The notes beneath the pieces were generated by a model that was not told where the DNA came from, did no database searches, and saw only the letters and a program-made list of their open reading frames with translations. A stretch of DNA of 64,000 nucleotides from Escherichia coli (lineage in GTDB: Bacteria; Pseudomonadota; Gammaproteobacteria; Enterobacterales; Enterobacteriaceae): assembly GCF_003334815.1 (NCBI RefSeq), contig NZ_QOWO01000002.1; one strand, given 5' to 3'. Below are positions 11,800-44,640 of this stretch, in pieces; position 1 is the first letter of the stretch, and the number at the start of each line of letters is the position of its first letter. The position numbers were made by a program, and so were the translations under genes.

Positions 11800-11900
<101 letters not shown>

Positions 11901-17054: not shown

Positions 17055-17172
17055 ACGTAGCGTAAACGCCTGATCCGTCCAACGGTTCGGATTTTGTAGG
17101 CCTGATAAGACGCGGTAGCGTCGCATCAGGCATCTGTTGCCGGATGCGGCGTAAACGCCTTATCCGTCCTAC
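17055..17172. repeat. REP (repetitive extragenic palindrome) cluster between hcxB and ybiJ
   Basis: Repeated GCCTGAT...CGCATCAGGC and TGCCGGATGCGGCGTAAACGCCTTATCCG units. Confidence 0.8.
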
Positions 17173-35473: not shown

Positions 35474-37066
35474 GTGTTAGTTTCCAGTAACGTCACCATG
35501 CAGTTCGGCAGTAAGCCGTTGTTTGAAAACATTTCCGTCAAATTTGGCGGCGGCAACCGTTACGGCCTGATTGGCGCGAACGGTAGTGGTAAATCCACCT
35601 TTATGAAGATCCTCGGCGGCGACCTTGAGCCGACGCTGGGTAACGTTTCCCTCGATCCCAACGAGCGCATTGGTAAACTGCGTCAGGATCAGTTTGCCTT
35701 TGAAGAGTTCACTGTGCTGGATACGGTGATCATGGGGCATAAAGAGTTGTGGGAAGTGAAGCAGGAGCGCGACCGCATCTATGCTTTGCCGGAAATGAGT
35801 GAAGAAGACGGCTATAAAGTGGCCGATCTGGAAGTTAAATACGGCGAAATGGACGGTTACTCTGCGGAAGCTCGCGCCGGTGAACTGTTGCTTGGCGTGG
35901 GAATTCCAGTGGAACAGCACTACGGCCCGATGAGTGAAGTTGCTCCTGGCTGGAAGCTGCGTGTGCTTCTGGCGCAGGCGCTGTTTGCTGATCCGGATAT
36001 TCTCCTGCTCGACGAACCGACCAACAACCTCGACATCGACACCATTCGCTGGCTGGAACAGGTGCTGAACGAGCGTGACAGCACCATGATCATCATCTCG
36101 CACGACCGTCACTTCCTTAACATGGTCTGTACCCACATGGCGGATCTGGATTACGGCGAGCTGCGCGTTTATCCGGGTAACTACGATGAGTACATGACGG
36201 CGGCGACCCAGGCGCGTGAACGTCTGCTGGCCGATAACGCCAAGAAGAAAGCGCAGATTGCTGAGTTGCAATCTTTCGTTAGCCGCTTTAGCGCCAACGC
36301 CTCGAAATCTCGCCAGGCAACTTCGCGCGCGCGCCAGATTGATAAAATCAAACTGGAAGAGGTGAAAGCCTCCAGCCGTCAGAACCCGTTCATCCGTTTT
36401 GAACAGGATAAGAAACTGTTCCGTAACGCGCTGGAAGTGGAAGGTCTGACCAAAGGGTTTGATAACGGTCCGCTGTTTAAAAATCTCAACCTGCTGCTGG
36501 AAGTGGGTGAAAAACTGGCGGTACTGGGTACCAACGGCGTCGGTAAATCAACGCTGCTGAAAACGCTGGTGGGCGATCTGCAACCGGACAGCGGCACCGT
36601 AAAATGGTCTGAGAACGCGCGCATTGGTTACTATGCTCAGGACCACGAATATGAGTTTGAAAATGATCTGACCGTGTTCGAATGGATGAGCCAGTGGAAG
36701 CAGGAAGGCGATGACGAGCAGGCGGTACGCAGTATTCTCGGTCGTTTGCTGTTCAGCCAGGACGACATCAAAAAGCCAGCTAAAGTGCTTTCCGGTGGGG
36801 AAAAAGGGCGGATGCTGTTTGGTAAGTTAATGATGCAGAAGCCGAACATTCTGATCATGGACGAACCGACCAACCACCTGGATATGGAATCCATTGAGTC
36901 GCTGAACATGGCACTGGAACTGTATCAGGGCACGCTGATCTTTGTTTCACACGACCGTGAGTTCGTAAGCTCCCTGGCGACCCGCATTCTGGAAATCACC
37001 CCGGAACGCGTGATCGACTTTAGCGGTAATTACGAAGATTACCTGCGTAGTAAAGGGATCGAGTAA
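35474..37066 (+). CDS. ybiT: ABC-F family ATPase YbiT (two NBDs, no TM domain)
   Basis: ORF track 530 aa, GTG start; Walker A twice ([18 protein letters not shown]), two signature motifs, inter-domain linker. Confidence 0.9.
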
Positions 37067-37126
37067 GTGATTATCCGTCACCCCGATACTGTCGGGGTGA
37101 CGGCGGCTGATGACAAATGCAAAATA

Positions 37127-37227
37127 GCCTGATGCGCTACGCTTATCAGGCCTACGCAGTACCTGCAATATATTGAATCTGCAGGACTTTGTAGGCCGGA
37201 TAAGGCGTTAACGCCGCATCAGGCATT
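37127..37227. repeat. RIP/BIME-type element downstream of ybiT (direct-repeat partner of 11800-11900)
   Basis: Same REP-IHF-REP arrangement, same orientation as the rhlE copy. Confidence 0.8.
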
Positions 37228-37306
37228 AACAAAGCGCATTTGTCAGCAATCTGAGTAACGTCGAATCGATTTTCTTAATCCCACATCAATTCACTTCCAT
37301 TAATTC

Positions 37307-38572
37307 TCAAACATCCATGCCCAACGCTCGCTTACCGTGAATGTTGAGGTCGGCAAGCGTAAAGCGTCCTTCCCAGTTTGTTTCATAGTCCTCGCGCGGG
37401 AAGTCGCCCGGCGATGCGCCTTTTTCCAGTGCGGCCTTCACCTTGTGCGCGTAGGCAAGATTTTTCTCGCACATCGGTGCCGCAGGAATGTACATCACGT
37501 TGCCCCAACCTTGTTGATTTTCAACGGGGGCAACGGAATGGATGACGTCGCAGTGCCACCAGACGGAGTCTCCGGCTTCGAGTTTTGGAATGCTGGTTAA
37601 CGCCTCAATCAACAGTGGATGCCATTGCTCTGATACCGGCAATACTCTTCCGGGCGCTACGCCGCACAGTTCATCCTCCGGCACATCATCAAGCAGCGGA
37701 CGTAACAGTACGTACGCCATAGCTTCAGGAATGGGCACGACGTGCAGCAGCCCCTGACCAGGCAGCATATCAGAGAGCGCTGTCCAGCCCTGGAATGTCC
37801 GAAACACGGAACATTTGGTGGTGTTGTCCACCGTGTACTCTTCAACTTCCGTACGATGTGCCGCATGCCAGGGATCATATTGCGCCAGATTGCCATTAAA
37901 GACGTTGGCGAAAACGCGCTGATACGCTGGAAGCAGCCAGCGTTCCAGTGCCCCGGAGTCGGTATGCGCTCCAAGACCTTTGGAGGTCGTTCCGGGCGGA
38001 CGGCGGCGGATACGGTCAGGGTAGATGACGCTCACATCCGGGTTAAACCATTGCTTTCCATCACTTTCAAATGTCCACAGACGATTGAGAAACGACTGCG
38101 CATTCGCCATTTCTTCACTCTGGCGGGCCTGCATTTGCGCCTGCGACCAGTAGATGGGGTAAATCTCGGGACGTGAAGCGCTGAGCGTCCCGAAGAAATT
38201 ATCGCCGGGGCCTTTGTAGACCTCGTCAAAGCGGTTGCGGTCCAGATAGTCCAGCATCGACTGATCCCAGCCTAGCGCTTGTTCGCGGGGGAAATGGCCT
38301 TTTATCACCGCACAACCGCGACGTTTAATCTGTTCGCGCTGCTCTGCAGTAACATGACCTGCTTTGATATCGGCATAAGACAGCACCGGCCAGACGGCAT
38401 CGCCCTGTGCTTTGAGTGCGTTGATTTCAGCCACTCGCGTGGCAATGTCATCGCTTAGCTGATTAAAGATCTGCTGGACGTCGCCAAGCTGCGCCCGCAG
38501 CGCGTGCTTCATCTGACGGATAGCTGCTTTGTGATCGGCAGGCAATGTGTCGCTGGTAAAAGTAGAAGCCAT
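37307..38572 (-). CDS. ybiU: DUF1479 protein YbiU (possible Fe(II)/2OG-oxygenase-like fold)
   Basis: ORF track 423 aa; start trimmed to MASTFTSD (421 aa); HxD motif (GAHTDSG). Confidence 0.8.
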   Translation of the reverse strand: MASTFTSDTLPADHKAAIRQMKHALRAQLGDVQQIFNQLSDDIATRVAEINALKAQGDAVWPVLSYADIKAGHVTAEQREQIKRRGCAVIKGHFPREQALGWDQSMLDYLDRNRFDEVYKGPGDNFFGTLSASRPEIYPIYWSQAQMQARQSEEMANAQSFLNRLWTFESDGKQWFNPDVSVIYPDRIRRRPPGTTSKGLGAHTDSGALERWLLPAYQRVFANVFNGNLAQYDPWHAAHRTEVEEYTVDNTTKCSVFRTFQGWTALSDMLPGQGLLHVVPIPEAMAYVLLRPLLDDVPEDELCGVAPGRVLPVSEQWHPLLIEALTSIPKLEAGDSVWWHCDVIHSVAPVENQQGWGNVMYIPAAPMCEKNLAYAHKVKAALEKGASPGDFPREDYETNWEGRFTLADLNIHGKRALGMDV

Positions 38573-38723
38573 AACCACCTCTCATTAACTTTCATTCGAA
38601 ACCATTCTGATTTGCATGTGACAATATAAGTTATAAATAAGTTAATGCAAGTTTAATGATTTGATGTGATGTACAGGATGTAAAAAGAAGGGAAAACCGG
38701 AGCGCACGGCTCCGGTAGAGAGG

Positions 38724-39539
38724 TCAGCTGTTAAAAGGGGATGTGTTATCCAGCACCGCCTGAATCACATTCAGCGCGCCTTCATGATTATTATCATCGG
38801 TAGCGTAACGGGCGATTTGTTTAATGTTTTCCGCAGCATTGCCCATCGCAAAGGAATAACGCGCCATTTTCAGCATCTCCGCATCGTTACCGCTGTCGCC
38901 AATCGCTACCACATTTTGCGGTGACAGATCCCAGCGTTTCAGTAACCGCGAAATACCGTTTGCTTTATGTAGACCGGGAATAATCAGGTCGATAAAGCCA
39001 AAACCACTGGTAACGGGTTTCATAATGCCATCGAGCGCTACGTGCAGTTTGTCGATCACTAACGGGATTTGTTCATCCGGCAGGTTGAGCGAAAACTTGA
39101 ACAGTACGTCGTCAATCTCCTGATAATCTTTTACAGGTTTCAGGCGATGGTAGTGTTTTGCCATCAGTGCGACAAATGCTTCGGGGGCATTTTCGCTGAC
39201 ATATGCACTTTGCAGACCGCAGGCGACAAAATTGAGTTGCTTATCTTTTAGCAACTCGCCAATAACAATCCGCGATTCATGTCGGGTCAGTTCGCCGTGG
39301 AACAACTGCTTGCCATGTTCGTAAACCAGTGCGCCGTTTTCCGCGACAAAAGAGATCTCATCCTTTAGCTCAGGAAAGAATGAAATAAGCTGGTAATACT
39401 GATTACCGCTGGCAACAACGAACTTAATGCCGCGCTTTTTCAGTTCCTGATATTGCGCCATAAAACGTGGTTGGTTGTACGTTTTGGCGTCGTTAAGAAA
39501 AGTACCGTCCATGTCTGTGACGATAACTTTTACGCTCAT
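38724..39539 (-). CDS. ybiV: HAD-superfamily (Cof-type) sugar phosphatase YbiV
   Basis: ORF track 271 aa; HAD motif I (VTDMDGTFL), C-terminal GDSGND. Confidence 0.9.
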
Positions 39540-39684
39540 AGGTGTGCTCCTGGCTCGAAAATGAAACCGTAACAGTGTAATAACAATGTGACGCAGAGCA
39601 CAAATTATATTTCGAATGAAAGTAAGGATGAAATTGATGATGTGAATGATTTAGCCCGGCGACGACGCCGCCGGGCCGAGGAGA

Positions 39685-42117
39685 TTACAGCATATGTTCA
39701 GTACGGGCGATGATATCGTCCTGAGCGTCTGGAGAGAGCGCGGTGAAGAACGCGGAATAGCCCGCGACACGCACTACCAGATCGCGATACTGATCGGGAT
39801 GTTTTTTCGCATCCAGCAGCGTTTCGCGGGAAACGATGTTGTACTGAATATGCCAGCCTTTATGCACTTCAAAGAAGGTACGCAGCAGGATCATCAGTTT
39901 CTGCTTGTCAGATTCGTTCTCCAGCGTTGCCGGATTCAGTTTCTGGTTGAGCAACACGCCGCCGAGAATCGCTGCCGTAGGCAGTTTACCCACTGAGCCA
40001 ATGACCGCAGTAGGGCCAAGATGGTCAGTACCGGAGGCCGGGCTTGCGCCTTCTGCCAGCGGGGTGTGGGCTTTACGCCCGTCCGGTGTTGCCATAGTCT
40101 GCGCGCCAAACGGTACGTTAGCGGAGATTGATGACGTACCCGCGTAATAGTTGCCGCCAACCGGACCACGACCGTAGCGCGGATTATGGTACTGTTTCAG
40201 TTCGTCGATATAGGTCTGATAAGCGCGAGCCAGCAGCGTATCGACAGTATCATCGTCGTTGCCGTACTTCGGCGCACCGTTAATCAGCCGCTGACGCAGC
40301 TGCTCGTGAGTCAGGCCGTCGAAGTCATCTGCCAGTGCGGCAGCAAGCTGTTGCTGACCAATCGCACCTTGTTCAAACACCAGTTTCTTCACTGCCGCCA
40401 GGCTGTTGCCGAGGTTGGCAATGCCGACCTGCAGGCCAGAAACCCAGTCATATTTCGCGCCGCCTTGCTTGATACTTTTCGCTCGCTCAATACAGTCATC
40501 CACCAGCGCCGAGCAGAGAATATCGTGCACGTTCTCTTCCAGCATGGTGTCGACGACATATTCGATTTCGATTGATTTGCGGGTGTAGTAACGGATTTGC
40601 GTATCCCACGCGTCCATCACTTCATCGAAGTTGTTGAAGTTACCTGCCGACAACGCTTTTTCTTGTGGCAGGAACACTTTGCCGCTGGTGGCATCATGCC
40701 CGCCTTCCAGCGCCGCCAGCATCACGCGGGCGAAGTTGATAAAGCTCATGCCGGTACAGCGATAGCCCCATTTGCCACCGACGGCGGTTTCTATACAACC
40801 AATCGCTGCGTAGTCATAAGCGTCCTGCGGTTCAATACCGAGTTTAATAAATTCCGGGATCACGATTTCGTCGTTGTTGAACGCCGGCATCCCGAAGCCG
40901 CAACGGATCACCTGTACGCAGGCGTCGAGGAAATCGTTGCTCATTCCTGCATGGTAACGCACGCTGAGGTTAGGCTGAGTGGAACGCAGGCGACCGCAGG
41001 ATTCGAGGATCGCGTAAGAGAGTGGATTCACCGCGTCCATTGGTTGACCATCAACCAGATTTTGCCCGCCAATAGTGACGTTCTGATACAGCGGACTTCC
41101 CGCAGAGGCTTTTGAGTGTGAGCCGGAGCGGATCTTGTTCACTTCCAGCAGTTTCAGCCAGCAGCTATGCAGCATCTCGATGGCGTGTTCGCGATCCAGC
41201 GTCTGGTTGAGTTCAACGTCGCGGCGATAGTACGGGTAGAGATACTGGTCCATACGACCAAACGATACTGAGTGACCGTTAGATTCGATCTGCAAAATCA
41301 ACTGGATGAAGTAACACAGTTGCAGCGCCTGCCAGAAAGTCTGCGGCGGCTGGTGGGCGATAAGATCGCAGTTTTCTGCCATCGCCAGCAGTTCATCGCG
41401 ACGGCTTTCGCGGGTTTCGGTCGCGGCCATTTCACGCGCCAGGGCAGCGAAACGTTCAATGTGTTCACTGACTGCCACCAGCACGATATCAATCGCTTTC
41501 AGGAATTGCTCACCGTGTAAATCTTCCAGCACCGTCAGGTTGATGCGCGAGCGACGTTCCGCTACTTTCTCGCGCAGACCATCAAGCCCTTTTTCCAGCA
41601 GCAGCGGGAAATTCACCGCCAGGTGCGCATCGCCGGAGGTCATATTGCCTTCCGCTTTAATGATTCCGGTCGCCAGCAGACCTTTTTGCTCATCGGTAAA
41701 CATGCCGTAGCAGCGATCCTGTACGGTCTGACCGCGCCACCACGGGCACACTTCATGCAGAACGCGTTTGTTCTCTTCGCTCACCGCAAAGCCAGCACCG
41801 GGACGATCTGCCAGATCATCAATCTCTTTTTCGATCCACGAGACAGTATATTCCGGGAAGATCGGCGCGGCGCGAACTTCGCTTGCCTGGTTGCCAATGA
41901 TCAACTCATCGTGTTTGATCCAGATGGTGCGATTCGCCAGGTGATGCGCCAGTGCCAGCGCGCGACGTACCGGGATCGGCTTATCGAGATGTTGTTGATA
42001 CATCTCGGTATAGTGCTGCGCGCGCTCGGTACAGACTGGCGGTTTCACAATATGCACCAGCGCATTTTTGTGCGCTTTAATGCGGTCGCTGAGCGTGTCC
42101 AGTTTCAGTGTGGTCAT
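39685..42117 (-). CDS. ybiW: Glycyl-radical enzyme YbiW (PFL-like; eliminase/dehydratase-type active site)
   Basis: ORF track 810 aa; glycyl radical motif RVAGYSAFF near C-terminus; Cys-x-Glu loop (AAIGCIETA) rather than a PFL-type CC pair. Confidence 0.9.
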   Translation of the reverse strand: MTTLKLDTLSDRIKAHKNALVHIVKPPVCTERAQHYTEMYQQHLDKPIPVRRALALAHHLANRTIWIKHDELIIGNQASEVRAAPIFPEYTVSWIEKEIDDLADRPGAGFAVSEENKRVLHEVCPWWRGQTVQDRCYGMFTDEQKGLLATGIIKAEGNMTSGDAHLAVNFPLLLEKGLDGLREKVAERRSRINLTVLEDLHGEQFLKAIDIVLVAVSEHIERFAALAREMAATETRESRRDELLAMAENCDLIAHQPPQTFWQALQLCYFIQLILQIESNGHSVSFGRMDQYLYPYYRRDVELNQTLDREHAIEMLHSCWLKLLEVNKIRSGSHSKASAGSPLYQNVTIGGQNLVDGQPMDAVNPLSYAILESCGRLRSTQPNLSVRYHAGMSNDFLDACVQVIRCGFGMPAFNNDEIVIPEFIKLGIEPQDAYDYAAIGCIETAVGGKWGYRCTGMSFINFARVMLAALEGGHDATSGKVFLPQEKALSAGNFNNFDEVMDAWDTQIRYYTRKSIEIEYVVDTMLEENVHDILCSALVDDCIERAKSIKQGGAKYDWVSGLQVGIANLGNSLAAVKKLVFEQGAIGQQQLAAALADDFDGLTHEQLRQRLINGAPKYGNDDDTVDTLLARAYQTYIDELKQYHNPRYGRGPVGGNYYAGTSSISANVPFGAQTMATPDGRKAHTPLAEGASPASGTDHLGPTAVIGSVGKLPTAAILGGVLLNQKLNPATLENESDKQKLMILLRTFFEVHKGWHIQYNIVSRETLLDAKKHPDQYRDLVVRVAGYSAFFTALSPDAQDDIIARTEHML

Positions 42118-42122
42118 GGTTG

Positions 42123-43049
42123 TTATCCTCGTAAGGTCGCGGTTAACCCTTTCTGGCAGGCATACTGCTGGGCAAAGTCGAGCAGTTCTGGCGCATCAAG
42201 CGGTTTTTCCGGGGCGTCATAGGGCAGATTAAGTAAGTGATATTTGTTGATGCCCAGCGTGTGGTAGGGCAGAAAATGAATTTCGCCAACGTGCAGCTCG
42301 TCGGCGGCAAAATCGGTAATGGCTTTTACAGAGGTTTCGTCGGCATTAAAGCCCTGAATCAGCGGCACGCGGATAATGATTTTTTTGCCCGCTGCGGCGA
42401 GTTTTTTCAGGTTATCCAGCACTCTGGCGGCGTTACCGTCGGTCCACTGTTTAAACGGCGCGTCGGCAACGTGTTTTAAATCGGCAAGAAACAGATCGAT
42501 ATAGGGCAGAGAAGGGGCGATATATTTCCACGGCACATGCAGACAGGTTTCTACCGCAGTATGAATGCCTGCCTCGTGGCTGGCTTGCAGTAGCGCCATC
42601 GCCATTTCCGGCTGCATAAAGGGCTCACCACCCGAAAGCGTTAAACCGCCGCCGCTGCGATCGTAAAACGGTTTATCGCGCAGAACGGTCGTCATGATCT
42701 CCTCAACGCTTTTCACTTCACCACACACGGTTAATGCCTGTGTCGGACAGCAGTCGGTTAACGCCGTCAGATGCTCCGGGGTTAACTTTTCCCGATGAAT
42801 AAGCAAACCATTCAGCGCGCGCTCAATCACTTCCGGCGCGGCCTTAGCGCACAGCTCGCAGCCTTCCAGACACAGTCGTGCGTCATACAGCAGATCCTGC
42901 GTGCGGGCGCGGCTTTCCGGGTTCTGACACCAGCGGCAGCCCAGCGAACAGCCTTTAAGAAATACGACCGTGCGGATACCGGGGCCATCATGGGTCGAGT
43001 AGCGCTGAATATTGAAAATCATAGTTGCCTCTCTATTTCGTTCAAGCAT
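42123..43049 (-). CDS. ybiY: Glycyl-radical enzyme activase YbiY (radical SAM, with ferredoxin-like insert)
   Basis: ORF track 308 aa; CxxxCxxC (CSLGCRWC) plus extra Cys clusters ([18 protein letters not shown]); 5 nt upstream of ybiW; alternative start at MIFNIQ possible. Confidence 0.85.
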
Positions 43050-43152
43050 TAAAATACTTTCGAATGAAAGTTAGATTGATGTGCGTCAACTGTTCAGAGA
43101 GTTTTCCCGTGATAGTCTACATTCAGACAAAAAGTACATTTTGAGGATGGTT

Positions 43153-43815
43153 ATGGAACTGTATCTGGATACTTCAGACGTTGTTGCGGTGAAGGCGCTG
43201 TCACGTATTTTTCCGCTGGCGGGTGTGACCACTAACCCAAGCATTATCGCCGCGGGTAAAAAACCGCTGGATGTTGTGCTTCCGCAACTTCATGAAGCGA
43301 TGGGCGGTCAGGGGCGTCTGTTTGCCCAGGTAATGGCTACCACTGCCGAAGGGATGGTTAATGACGCGCTTAAGCTGCGTTCTATTATTGCGGATATCGT
43401 GGTGAAAGTTCCGGTGACCGCCGAGGGGCTGGCAGCTATTAAGATGTTAAAAGCGGAAGGGATTCCGACGCTGGGAACCGCGGTATATGGCGCAGCACAA
43501 GGGCTGCTGTCGGCGCTGGCAGGTGCGGAATATGTTGCGCCTTACGTTAATCGTATTGATGCTCAGGGCGGTAGCGGCATTCAGACTGTGACCGACTTAC
43601 ACCAGTTATTGAAAATGCATGCGCCGCAGGCGAAAGTGCTGGCAGCGAGTTTCAAAACCCCGCGTCAGGCGCTGGACTGCTTACTGGCAGGATGTGAATC
43701 AATTACTCTGCCACTGGATGTGGCACAACAGATGATTAGCTATCCGGCGGTTGATGCCGCTGTGGCGAAGTTTGAGCAGGACTGGCAGGGAGCGTTTGGC
43801 AGAACGTCGATTTAA
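43153..43815 (+). CDS. fsaA: Fructose-6-phosphate aldolase 1
   Basis: ORF track 244 aa; start trimmed to [10 protein letters not shown] (220 aa); transaldolase-like fold. Confidence 0.9.
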
Positions 43816-43890
43816 CCGGACGTTCTGCATCCTCATAAATTGCTGATGACGTGGCGGAGTGCCGCGTCTTATCAGGCCTGGAGGTGGCAA

Positions 43891-44640
43891 TTACTGCCCA
43901 CACACCTCACACCCCGGATTACGCATCAGTTTCATTTCGCGAAACTGACAGGTCATCGCATCGTACATGACGATTTTCCCGCTGGCCGGTTTGCCATAAC
44001 CTGCCAGCATTTTGATCGCTTCCATTGCCTGCAACGAACCAATTACGCCGATCAACGGTGCCATTACGCCTGCTTCCACGCAGGTTAATGCATTTTCACC
44101 AAACAAACGGCTAAGGCAGCGATAGCACGGTTCACCGTCCTGATAAGTAAAGACGGTGATTTGACCTTCCATACGAATTGCCGCGCCGGAAACCAGCGGT
44201 ACCTTCGCGGCAAAACAGCCTGCGTTCAGTTGATTACGTACCGCAACGTTATCCGTACAGTCGAGCACCAGATCGTGTTCAGCAATCAATGCTGCAAGTT
44301 CTGCGTCATCCAGCAGTGCATTGACTGGCGTAATCGCGATATGTGGGTTGATCCGCGTCAGGGCGTCACGGGCGGATTCCACCTTCGGTTGCCCGACCGT
44401 GGCATCACTGTGCAGTGTCTGGCGTTGCAGATTCGAGAGCGAAACCGTGTCGAAGTCGAGCAGCGTCAGGTTACCGACACCGGCGCTTGCCAGATACTGC
44501 GAGGCTGCACAGCCGAGGCCGCCCAGGCCCACTATCAGCACGCGAGAATCTTTCAGCGCCTCCTGGCCGTCAAAATCAAAGCCGCGCAGAATGATTTGCC
44601 GGTTGTAGCGCAGCATCTCCTGATCGCTGAGTTCCGCCAT
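43891..44640 (-). CDS. moeB: Molybdopterin-synthase adenylyltransferase MoeB
   Basis: ORF track 249 aa; ThiF/MoeB Gly-rich loop (GLGGLGCAAS), CxxC pairs. Confidence 0.95.
   Translation of the reverse strand: MAELSDQEMLRYNRQIILRGFDFDGQEALKDSRVLIVGLGGLGCAASQYLASAGVGNLTLLDFDTVSLSNLQRQTLHSDATVGQPKVESARDALTRINPHIAITPVNALLDDAELAALIAEHDLVLDCTDNVAVRNQLNAGCFAAKVPLVSGAAIRMEGQITVFTYQDGEPCYRCLSRLFGENALTCVEAGVMAPLIGVIGSLQAMEAIKMLAGYGKPASGKIVMYDAMTCQFREMKLMRNPGCEVCGQ

Follow-up and report, generated by a model that had tools for sequence, protein, structure and literature searches.

YciT-repressed ybi genes of Escherichia coli and a probable regulon for 1,5-anhydroglucitol-6-phosphate

Introduction

YbiW and PflD of Escherichia coli are glycyl radical enzymes (GREs) for which sugar-phosphate substrates have recently been described. 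As summarized in a 2025 review (PMC12441222) of the work of Ma et al. (JACS 146:26187, 2024), YbiW cleaves 1,5-anhydroglucitol-6-phosphate (AG6P) to 1-deoxyfructose-6-phosphate in a glycyl-radical-dependent and strictly anaerobic reaction, while PflD generates the same product from 1,5-anhydromannitol-6-phosphate. According to this summary, 1,5-anhydroglucitol and 1,5-anhydromannitol are phosphorylated by a phosphotransferase system (PTS), and the pathway supports growth of E. coli and many gut bacteria on anhydroglucitol (PMC12441222 on Ma et al., 2024). The core function of YbiW as a ring-opening eliminase acting on AG6P has thus been known from the literature since 2024. Here, ybiW and its neighbors ybiU, ybiV, ybiY and fsaA were analyzed in a 64,000-nt stretch of E. 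coli DNA (RefSeq assembly GCF_003334815.1, contig NZ_QOWO01000002.1), and this whole stretch is referred to as the window. The locus very probably represents a single regulon for handling AG6P, which comprises the core pathway, predicted control by YciT, FNR and CRP, and the putative accessory proteins YbiV and YbiU. The novelty of the regulatory map and of the population data is limited to computational detail.

AG6P is 1-deoxy-glucose-6-phosphate. Food and blood contain abundant 1,5-anhydroglucitol, its parent compound, and the 6-phosphate is toxic to human neutrophils; bacterial handling of anhydroglucitol in the gut, with and without oxygen, is of some medical interest. Downstream of the radical step, FsaA or FsaB is said to split 1-deoxyfructose-6-phosphate into glyceraldehyde-3-phosphate and hydroxyacetone, and GldA reportedly reduces hydroxyacetone to 1,2-propanediol.

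Organization of the locus

Positions 37000 to 44000 of the window are E. coli chromosomal sequence that differs from K-12 MG1655 at a single nucleotide (position 41568), giving Lys184 in YbiW of this strain and Glu184 in K-12. Thousands of complete E. coli genomes were matched by a 7-kb query from this region, with identities of up to 100%. Gene starts were taken from the MG1655 annotation (window offset 820489); in the list of open reading frames (ORFs), ybiY (308 aa) and ybiU (GTG start) are slightly longer than the annotated genes. All four ybi genes lie on the - strand, with a gap of 5 bp between ybiY and ybiW, and fsaA is divergent on the + strand:

37307..38572, - strand: ybiU, Gig2-like (DUF1479) protein, 421 aa (ORF list and MG1655 start; Pfam PF07350)
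38724..39539, - strand: ybiV, Cof-type HAD-IIB sugar-phosphate phosphatase, 271 aa (TIGR00099; PDB 1RLM, 2HF2)
39685..42117, - strand: ybiW, glycyl radical enzyme, 810 aa, with Gly786, Cys441 and Glu443 (ORF list; TIGR01774; PDB 8ID7/8YJN)
42123..43022, - strand: ybiY, radical-SAM activase of YbiW, 299 aa (ORF list, annotated start; TIGR02494; Pfam)
43153..43815, + strand: fsaA (NF009296, 451 bits; TIGR00875, 279 bits)

An original prediction, made from the letters of this DNA, had the coordinates, strand and order of the four ybi ORFs right. It also described fsaA as divergent at a distance of about 100 bp; the orientation stands, but the distance is 103 bp only when counted from the 308-aa ORF and 130 bp from the annotated ybiY start. 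For comparison, 80 YbiW-orthologous loci were collected from Enterobacterales reference genomes (YbiW 84-99% identical, 1.56 Mb in all), and fsaA is divergent from ybiY in 59 of them.

Class and catalytic residues of YbiW

YbiW aligns over residues 1-810 with the structures of the K-12 product of the same gene (PDB 8ID7 and 8YJN, 'Probable dehydratase YbiW'), save for E184K and engineered surface substitutions of these structures at residues 114-116. A MAFFT alignment of YbiW with E. coli PflD and PflB places the glycyl radical motif R783-V-A-G786-Y-S-A-F-F on RVSG734Y of PflB, with Gly786 on Gly734; Cys441 falls on PflB Cys419, Gly440 on Cys418 and Glu443 on a serine. Cys441 and Glu443 are carried by the loop AAIGCIETA, and a search of solved structures with a YbiW fragment matched them, in a gap-free alignment, to Cys433 and Glu435 of 1R8W, the B12-independent glycerol dehydratase of Clostridium butyricum. 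These two residues of 1R8W are the catalytic thiyl-forming cysteine and the general-base glutamate, respectively. Both the RVAGYSAFF fingerprint and the Cys-x-Glu pattern named in the original prediction are therefore present, the Cys/Glu positions sit on the catalytic loop of structurally characterized GREs, and the Cys-Cys pair that it had declared missing is indeed absent.

Profile scores point in the same direction. YbiW reaches 1410.9 bits on TIGR01774, the NCBIfam model of the PFL2/glycerol-dehydratase class (cut-off 678.2), and passes no equivalog-level model of NCBIfam; the pyruvate formate-lyase (PFL) equivalog TIGR01255 yields 165 bits (cut-off 994), and the identity to PflB is 26%. 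Apart from YbiW itself and its near-identical orthologue 6XS4, the best-matching solved structures are 1R8W (E 1e-163) and the propanediol dehydratase 5I2A. Judged by these sequence comparisons, YbiW is a 1,2-eliminase-type GRE of the PFL2/glycerol-dehydratase class and not a formate-lyase, which agrees with the earlier suspicion that its PFL-like name is misleading. RefSeq naming lags behind ('putative pyruvate formate lyase' or 'glycyl radical protein'), and an equivalog model for it is lacking from NCBIfam. The original prediction had also anticipated elimination chemistry on a derivative of a sugar or polyol, with fsaA in the same route, in line with the published cleavage of AG6P, and so had it a recent characterization of the enzyme, which exists in the form of PDB 8ID7 and 8YJN and of Ma et al. 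(JACS, 2024).

Three groups of described GREs are informative for comparison. Of the PflD/PflC pair, PflD (PDB 8YJO) resembles YbiW, with 39% identity, the RVAGYSAFF motif and a Cys-x-Glu loop (GCVE); it differs in its epimeric substrate, 1,5-anhydromannitol-6-phosphate, and in its position among frw PTS genes next to ptsA-fsaB-gldA. The 1,2-eliminating GREs (1R8W, propanediol dehydratase, choline trimethylamine-lyase, hydroxyproline dehydratase) share with YbiW the fold family, the aligned Cys/Glu residues (1R8W) and the activase subfamily, and a radical beta-elimination beside a hydroxyl-bearing carbon would be expected in all of them. In contrast to these enzymes, the leaving group of YbiW is a ring ether oxygen and not a hydroxyl or trimethylamine group, and the substrate is a sugar phosphate; therefore, the YbiW reaction opens the ring and is an isomerization overall. 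PflB has the glycyl radical domain and the thiyl-forming cysteine in common with YbiW (Cys419, corresponding to Cys441), but the equivalent of its Cys418 is missing in YbiW, and PflB carries Ser instead of Glu two residues past the cysteine.

In the core pathway as reported in the literature, YbiY places the radical on Gly786 of YbiW, YbiW opens the pyranose ether of AG6P to form 1-deoxyfructose-6-phosphate, and FsaA splits this product. By analogy with the 1,2-eliminase class, the Gly786 radical would generate a thiyl radical on Cys441, which may then abstract hydrogen from C2 of the substrate. Glu443 would deprotonate the C2 hydroxyl, the ketyl radical would expel the adjacent C1-O5 ether oxygen, and the C1 radical would regain hydrogen from Cys441.

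The activase YbiY

YbiY contains the radical S-adenosylmethionine (SAM) motif C25-x3-C29-x2-C32 and the Pfam domains Radical_SAM and Fer4_12, and scores 370 bits on TIGR02494 (cut-off 174). Its residues 37-100 form a 64-residue Cys-rich insert that is absent from PflA and carries two cysteine groups, C51-x3-C55-x2-C58 and C91-C92-P...C100. Two full CX2CX2CX3C motifs were not found in the insert, and its cysteines look as if they ligate a single auxiliary cluster of the ferredoxin type (CxxxCxxC...CP, as in PflC). The assignment of YbiY as a radical-SAM activase (CSLGCRWC) with extra cysteines can thus be maintained, but the two extra clusters proposed for it are not evident from the sequence, as the pattern resembles a single auxiliary site.

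A shared operator and the regulator YciT

The 16-mer TTTCGAATGAAAGTTA occurs three times in the 64-kb window, and all copies, even with three mismatches allowed, are located in regulatory regions of the cluster. The near-palindrome form of this element is given as CTTTCGAATGAAAGT, and its consensus across the orthologous loci is the near-palindrome aCTTTCGAATGAAAGT. The three copies are:

43058..43073, + strand: operator 1, TTTCGAATGAAAGTTA, between the divergent ybiY and fsaA promoters; candidate YciT site (16-mer match; conservation)
39610..39625, + strand: operator 2, TTTCGAATGAAAGTAA, one mismatch, 5' of ybiV, with TATAAT directly after it on the ybiV strand (sequence; 16-mer match)
38586..38601, - strand: operator 3, TTTCGAATGAAAGTTA, ending 13 nt before the ybiU ATG (16-mer match)

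A scan of the 80 orthologous loci with a 14-nt core and two mismatches allowed returned 172 matches in the 1.56 Mb, 169 of which fall at the same three positions. Operator 1 is kept approximately 50 nt 5' of ybiY and 82 nt 5' of fsaA in 76/80 loci, operator 2 approximately 82 nt 5' of ybiV in 46 loci and operator 3 approximately 28 nt 5' of ybiU in 45 loci. The DeoR-type regulator YciT was reported to be bound upstream of 'ybiUVWY' and fsaA, and two of its four strongest peaks in chromatin immunoprecipitation with exonuclease treatment (ChIP-exo) lie in this locus (Gao et al., NAR 2021). RNA-seq of a yciT deletion showed log2 changes of +7.7 for ybiY, +7.0 for ybiU, +3.5 for ybiW, +2.2 for ybiV and +1.8 for fsaA (Gao et al., NAR 2021). 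The operator copies match this published set of YciT-repressed genes, and we infer that the 16-bp element is the YciT binding site. YciT would accordingly bind the near-palindrome at three places, 5' of ybiY/fsaA, of ybiV and of ybiU. The published ChIP-exo list also holds a yjjI peak with a signal-to-noise ratio of 12 (Gao et al., 2021, Dataset S4); yjjI, which lies outside the window in E. coli K-12, is the gene of another glycyl-radical-type protein.

The genomic position of the regulator provides a further connection. Immediately adjoining ybiYW, a yciT homologue (58-81% identical) is found in Buttiauxella, Serratia, Cedecea, Brenneria, Pantoea and Rouxiella, among others, and ybiV and ybiU are missing from these clusters. 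The next genes in Buttiauxella and Serratia are yciH, pyrF, lapB and lapA, which also accompany yciT in E. coli. Because these flanks coincide, yciT probably adjoined the cluster in an ancestor, and the two parted in the lineage leading to E. coli; the gene orders suggest a relocation of the cluster to the moeB-ybiT site in Enterobacteriaceae. Examples in which fsaA, ybiYW and yciT lie beside yciH/pyrF/lapB/lapA are L069 12476-17554 (Buttiauxella) and L081 12440-18064 (Serratia).

The operator was not found in the upstream region of E. coli yciT, nor in the 15-kb pflD-frw-fsaB-gldA locus. As no copy is present in the latter, pflD appears to be under different control. Shared control with PflD and autoregulation of yciT via this element were considered and dropped, since there is no evidence for either and the operator is absent at both loci.

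The Rouxiella aceris locus (L056 5074-19056) shows an extended arrangement, in which the cluster is flanked by genes for a ROK-family sugar kinase and a gldA-like dehydrogenase and by a second yciT. It also includes a glucose/galactose-type MFS transporter and ptsG, with a ybiU-yciT' pair upstream. Its intergenic regions hold degenerate operator copies (2-3 mismatches), one of them 85 nt upstream of the MFS transporter gene.

Promoters and transcription units

Additional regulatory elements distinguish the promoters that share the operator:

43076..43089, + strand: FNR-like box TTGATGTGCGTCAA, class II (-41.5)-like placement for the ybiY promoter (only match in the window)
39587..39602, - strand: CRP-like box TGTGC-N6-TCACA, just downstream of the ybiV operator (sequence)
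38623..38650, - strand: candidate sigma-70 promoter of ybiU, TTGCAT, 16-nt spacer, TATATT (sequence)
39654..39677, - strand: GC-rich hairpin just past the ybiW stop, GCCCGGCG-7 nt-CGCCGGGC, without a U-tract (read from sequence)
38696..38716, - strand: intrinsic terminator past ybiV, ACCGGAGC-cgtgc-GCTCCGGT followed by TTTCCCTTCTTTTT (sequence and terminator scan)

The FNR-like box is separated from operator 1 by 2 nt, and its center lies approximately 29-30 nt 5' of a conserved TTTAAT, a class II FNR geometry with the operator in the spacer. Among the orthologous loci, 64/80 have TTGAY-N4-RTCAA at -67 to -72 relative to the ybiY ATG, and the pattern is missing from all 49 ybiV and all 47 ybiU upstream regions. 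Conversely, TGTG-N7-YCAC occurs at -59 to -65 in 47 of 49 ybiV upstream regions and was not found in those of ybiU, ybiY or fsaA. These distributions point to FNR as a putative activator at the ybiY promoter and to CRP as a putative regulator of ybiV. For ybiU, the TTGCAT...TAnAnT layout is kept in orthologous loci, and the operator is placed between this promoter and the ribosome-binding site. In addition to YciT control, ybiYW would therefore depend on FNR and hence be anaerobic, ybiV would receive a CRP-like input, and ybiU would be transcribed from a plain strong promoter.

Mean normalized counts (baseMean) in the aerobic yciT-deletion RNA-seq were 6488 for ybiU, 142 for ybiW and 24 for ybiY (Gao et al., NAR 2021). 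The difference between ybiU and ybiW argues for an independent ybiU promoter, and the counts fit FNR-driven ybiYW and a strong ybiU promoter. A terminator scan did not flag the hairpin after ybiW. Because of this hairpin, the terminator past ybiV and the promoter-like sequences of their own, ybiV and ybiU are read as separate units, and simple co-transcription with ybiYW does not apply to them. The four-gene module of the original prediction is accordingly upheld as a group tied by a shared operator and YciT repression, but not as a co-transcribed unit, and ybiV and ybiU are absent from many orthologous clusters. The result is a testable regulatory map, with one operator at three places, four promoters and a different global input at each.

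Accessory proteins YbiV and YbiU

YbiV scores 221 bits on TIGR00099 (cut-off 137), starts with D9-M-D11-G-T, the DxD nucleophile motif, and has solved structures (PDB 1RLM and 2HF2, 'sugar phosphatase SupH'), which corroborates its earlier designation as a HAD sugar phosphatase. It has been employed as a glucose-6-phosphate/mannose-6-phosphate phosphatase in engineering work. YbiU is matched by Pfam PF07350 over its whole length (E 2e-154) and by no NCBIfam model; its structures are PDB 2DBI, 2DBN and 2CSG. H203-T-D205, the HxD motif that had been noted for this DUF1479 protein, and H340/H345 are conserved in 2CSG, in 4RGK and in the Candida albicans Gig2 protein 6AKZ, and faint PhyH matches appear in some YbiU relatives. 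YbiU is thus a probable non-heme-iron oxygenase (Gig2-like). With other Gig2/DUF1479 proteins (6AKZ; 4RGK, 7TWC, 7TWE) it shares full-length PF07350 and the HxD plus distal His, whereas the tie to a glycyl-radical cluster, found in Enterobacteriaceae only, sets it apart.

In the literature, ybiU has served as an example of the 'no information' genes (a former y-ome gene); the papers found report no YbiU substrate, and nothing newer was found on YbiU or YbiV with anhydroglucitol. A homologue search recovered close Enterobacteriaceae relatives alone, and a search of representatives gave distant relatives. The contexts of eight distant homologues are mixed, with two in sugar ABC-transporter catabolic operons, one beside a GH38 mannosidase and the rest uninformative. 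Among complete E. coli genomes, ybiW is present in 5426/5426 and ybiU in 4331/5426 (80%), 242 of which have an allele 60-80% identical in DNA. Such divergent alleles are 82-84% identical in protein (L004, L006), despite an identity of 97-99% for the flanking genes. In strain HH97, ybiU is reduced to a decayed remnant (L087 3019-5639), and E. albertii (L005) is without ybiU. Because ybiU and ybiV are absent from many genomes or clusters, they are not needed for the core pathway. They are regarded here as co-regulated accessories, and roles in AG6P handling can be assigned to them with low confidence only: YbiV might counter a build-up of AG6P, or of hexose phosphates related to it, by dephosphorylation, and the YbiU iron oxygenase might act on the same metabolite pool when O2 blocks the radical enzyme.

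A more specific model, which is speculative and considered rather improbable, divides the regulon into two oxygen regimes. Under anoxic conditions, FNR-dependent YbiW would cleave AG6P; under oxic conditions, YbiU, whose gene is strongly expressed and lacks an FNR input, would hydroxylate C1, and YbiV would dephosphorylate any excess. If true, C1 hydroxylation by YbiU would turn the cyclic ether into a hemiacetal and thereby convert AG6P to glucose-6-phosphate (or anhydroglucitol to glucose), and the YciT regulon would deal with one toxic mimic of glucose in the presence as well as in the absence of oxygen. Sinorhizobium offers a chemical precedent, as it oxygenates 1,5-anhydromannitol at C1 to mannose.

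Alternative explanations

For YbiW itself, two other activities can be envisaged. A true pyruvate/2-ketobutyrate formate-lyase is extremely improbable: what speaks for it are legacy names, 'putative pyruvate formate lyase' in MG1655 and 'Formate C-acetyltransferase' for 6XS4, and it is contradicted by Gly440 at the position of the first cysteine of the PflB pair, by the 165 bits on TIGR01255 (cut-off 994) and by the 26% identity to PflB. It is also very unlikely, if less so, that YbiW is a dehydratase of small diols or glycerol like the C. butyricum enzyme instead of a sugar-phosphate enzyme. The shared Cys-x-Glu and the nearest solved structures other than YbiW and 6XS4, 1R8W (E 1e-163) and 5I2A, would be compatible with such a function, but AG6P is the substrate named in the literature, the enzyme is consistently accompanied by a fructose-6-phosphate-type aldolase, by a sugar-phosphate regulator of the DeoR type and by PTS or kinase genes, and the ORF list of the window has no microcompartment or aldehyde dehydrogenase genes near ybiW. 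More weight, though still that of an unlikely alternative, is given to the view that ybiU and ybiV adjoin ybiYW in Enterobacteriaceae by chance, as bystanders whose products have unrelated substrates, YbiV being a housekeeping sugar-phosphate phosphatase and YbiU an oxygenase with another role, for example in stress or desiccation. Separate promoters and the terminator between ybiV and ybiU would agree with this, as would the lack of both genes in the Buttiauxella, Serratia and Yersinia clusters, the absence or decay of ybiU in approximately 20% of E. coli genomes, the promiscuity of YbiV and a literature link between a Cronobacter DUF1479 protein and desiccation tolerance. Against it, each of the two genes has its own cluster-specific operator copy, kept in 45-46 loci, both are derepressed by the yciT deletion, with ybiU among the most strongly affected genes genome-wide, and the Rouxiella ybiU homologue adjoins a second yciT paralogue not far from the genes of the radical enzyme.

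The single AG6P regulon is thus preferred, and several observations detract from it. The substrate assignment draws on a review summary of Ma et al. (2024), and the FNR and CRP assignments are consensus matches combined with conservation. Converted as NC_000913.2 coordinates (offset 777), the YciT ChIP-exo intervals correspond to window positions 38743-38776 (3' end of ybiV) and 43161-43188 (5' end of fsaA), which lie 100-170 bp beside operator copies and do not overlap them; read as.3 coordinates, they fall within ybiU and ybiY instead. A coordinate convention or a real second contact may cause this offset. For the ybiV operator, the published YciT list contains no ChIP-exo peak. Finally, the heterogeneous contexts of distant YbiU homologues, the missing ybiU in about one fifth of E. 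coli genomes and the many orthologous clusters without ybiU or ybiV fit a single regulon less well.

The cluster in Yersinia

Six Yersinia species carry ybiY-ybiW between sgrR and a gene for a setA-like exporter (L071, L073, L074, L076, L078 and L080; e.g. L071 7316-14134), with YbiW 84-85% and YbiY 64-65% identical to the E. coli proteins. Within 10-kb flanks of ybiYW in these species, no fsaA or yciT was found. The sequence between sgrR and ybiY can be aligned with the promoter region of E. coli sgrS, and 125 nt past ybiW align directly with the SgrS seed and terminator. The Rfam SgrS match at this site stays below the gathering score (26 vs 37 bits), and the SgrS call is made because of the direct alignment and a 2009 paper. 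That paper had already described sgrR-ybiYW-sgrS in Y. enterocolitica, at a time when ybiYW was without a function (Horler and Vanderpool, NAR 2009), and the arrangement is consequently not presented as a new finding. In Yersinia, the radical enzyme appears to be embedded in the sgrS transcription unit, and with the 2024 assignment this arrangement may connect AG6P to the sugar-phosphate stress response. As a corollary of the speculative two-regime model, it suggests that AG6P naturally triggers the SgrR/SgrS response; to date, work on the physiological inducer of this response has used artificial analogues only.

Repeats and insertions near the locus

A cluster of repetitive extragenic palindromic (REP)-type repeats lies 3' of ybiU between ybiT and ybiU (window positions 37140-37260), with an Rfam match to ES036 at 37148-37190. 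In several E. coli strains, IS621 (IS110 family) is inserted in the ybiT-ybiU gap (e.g. locus L085 846-2038). Elsewhere in the window, gathering-level Rfam matches to naRNA4 (CssrE) and ES036 (CssrF) are located at 17099-17169 and 11821-11863, respectively; these are repeat-derived RNA families with no relation to the cluster.

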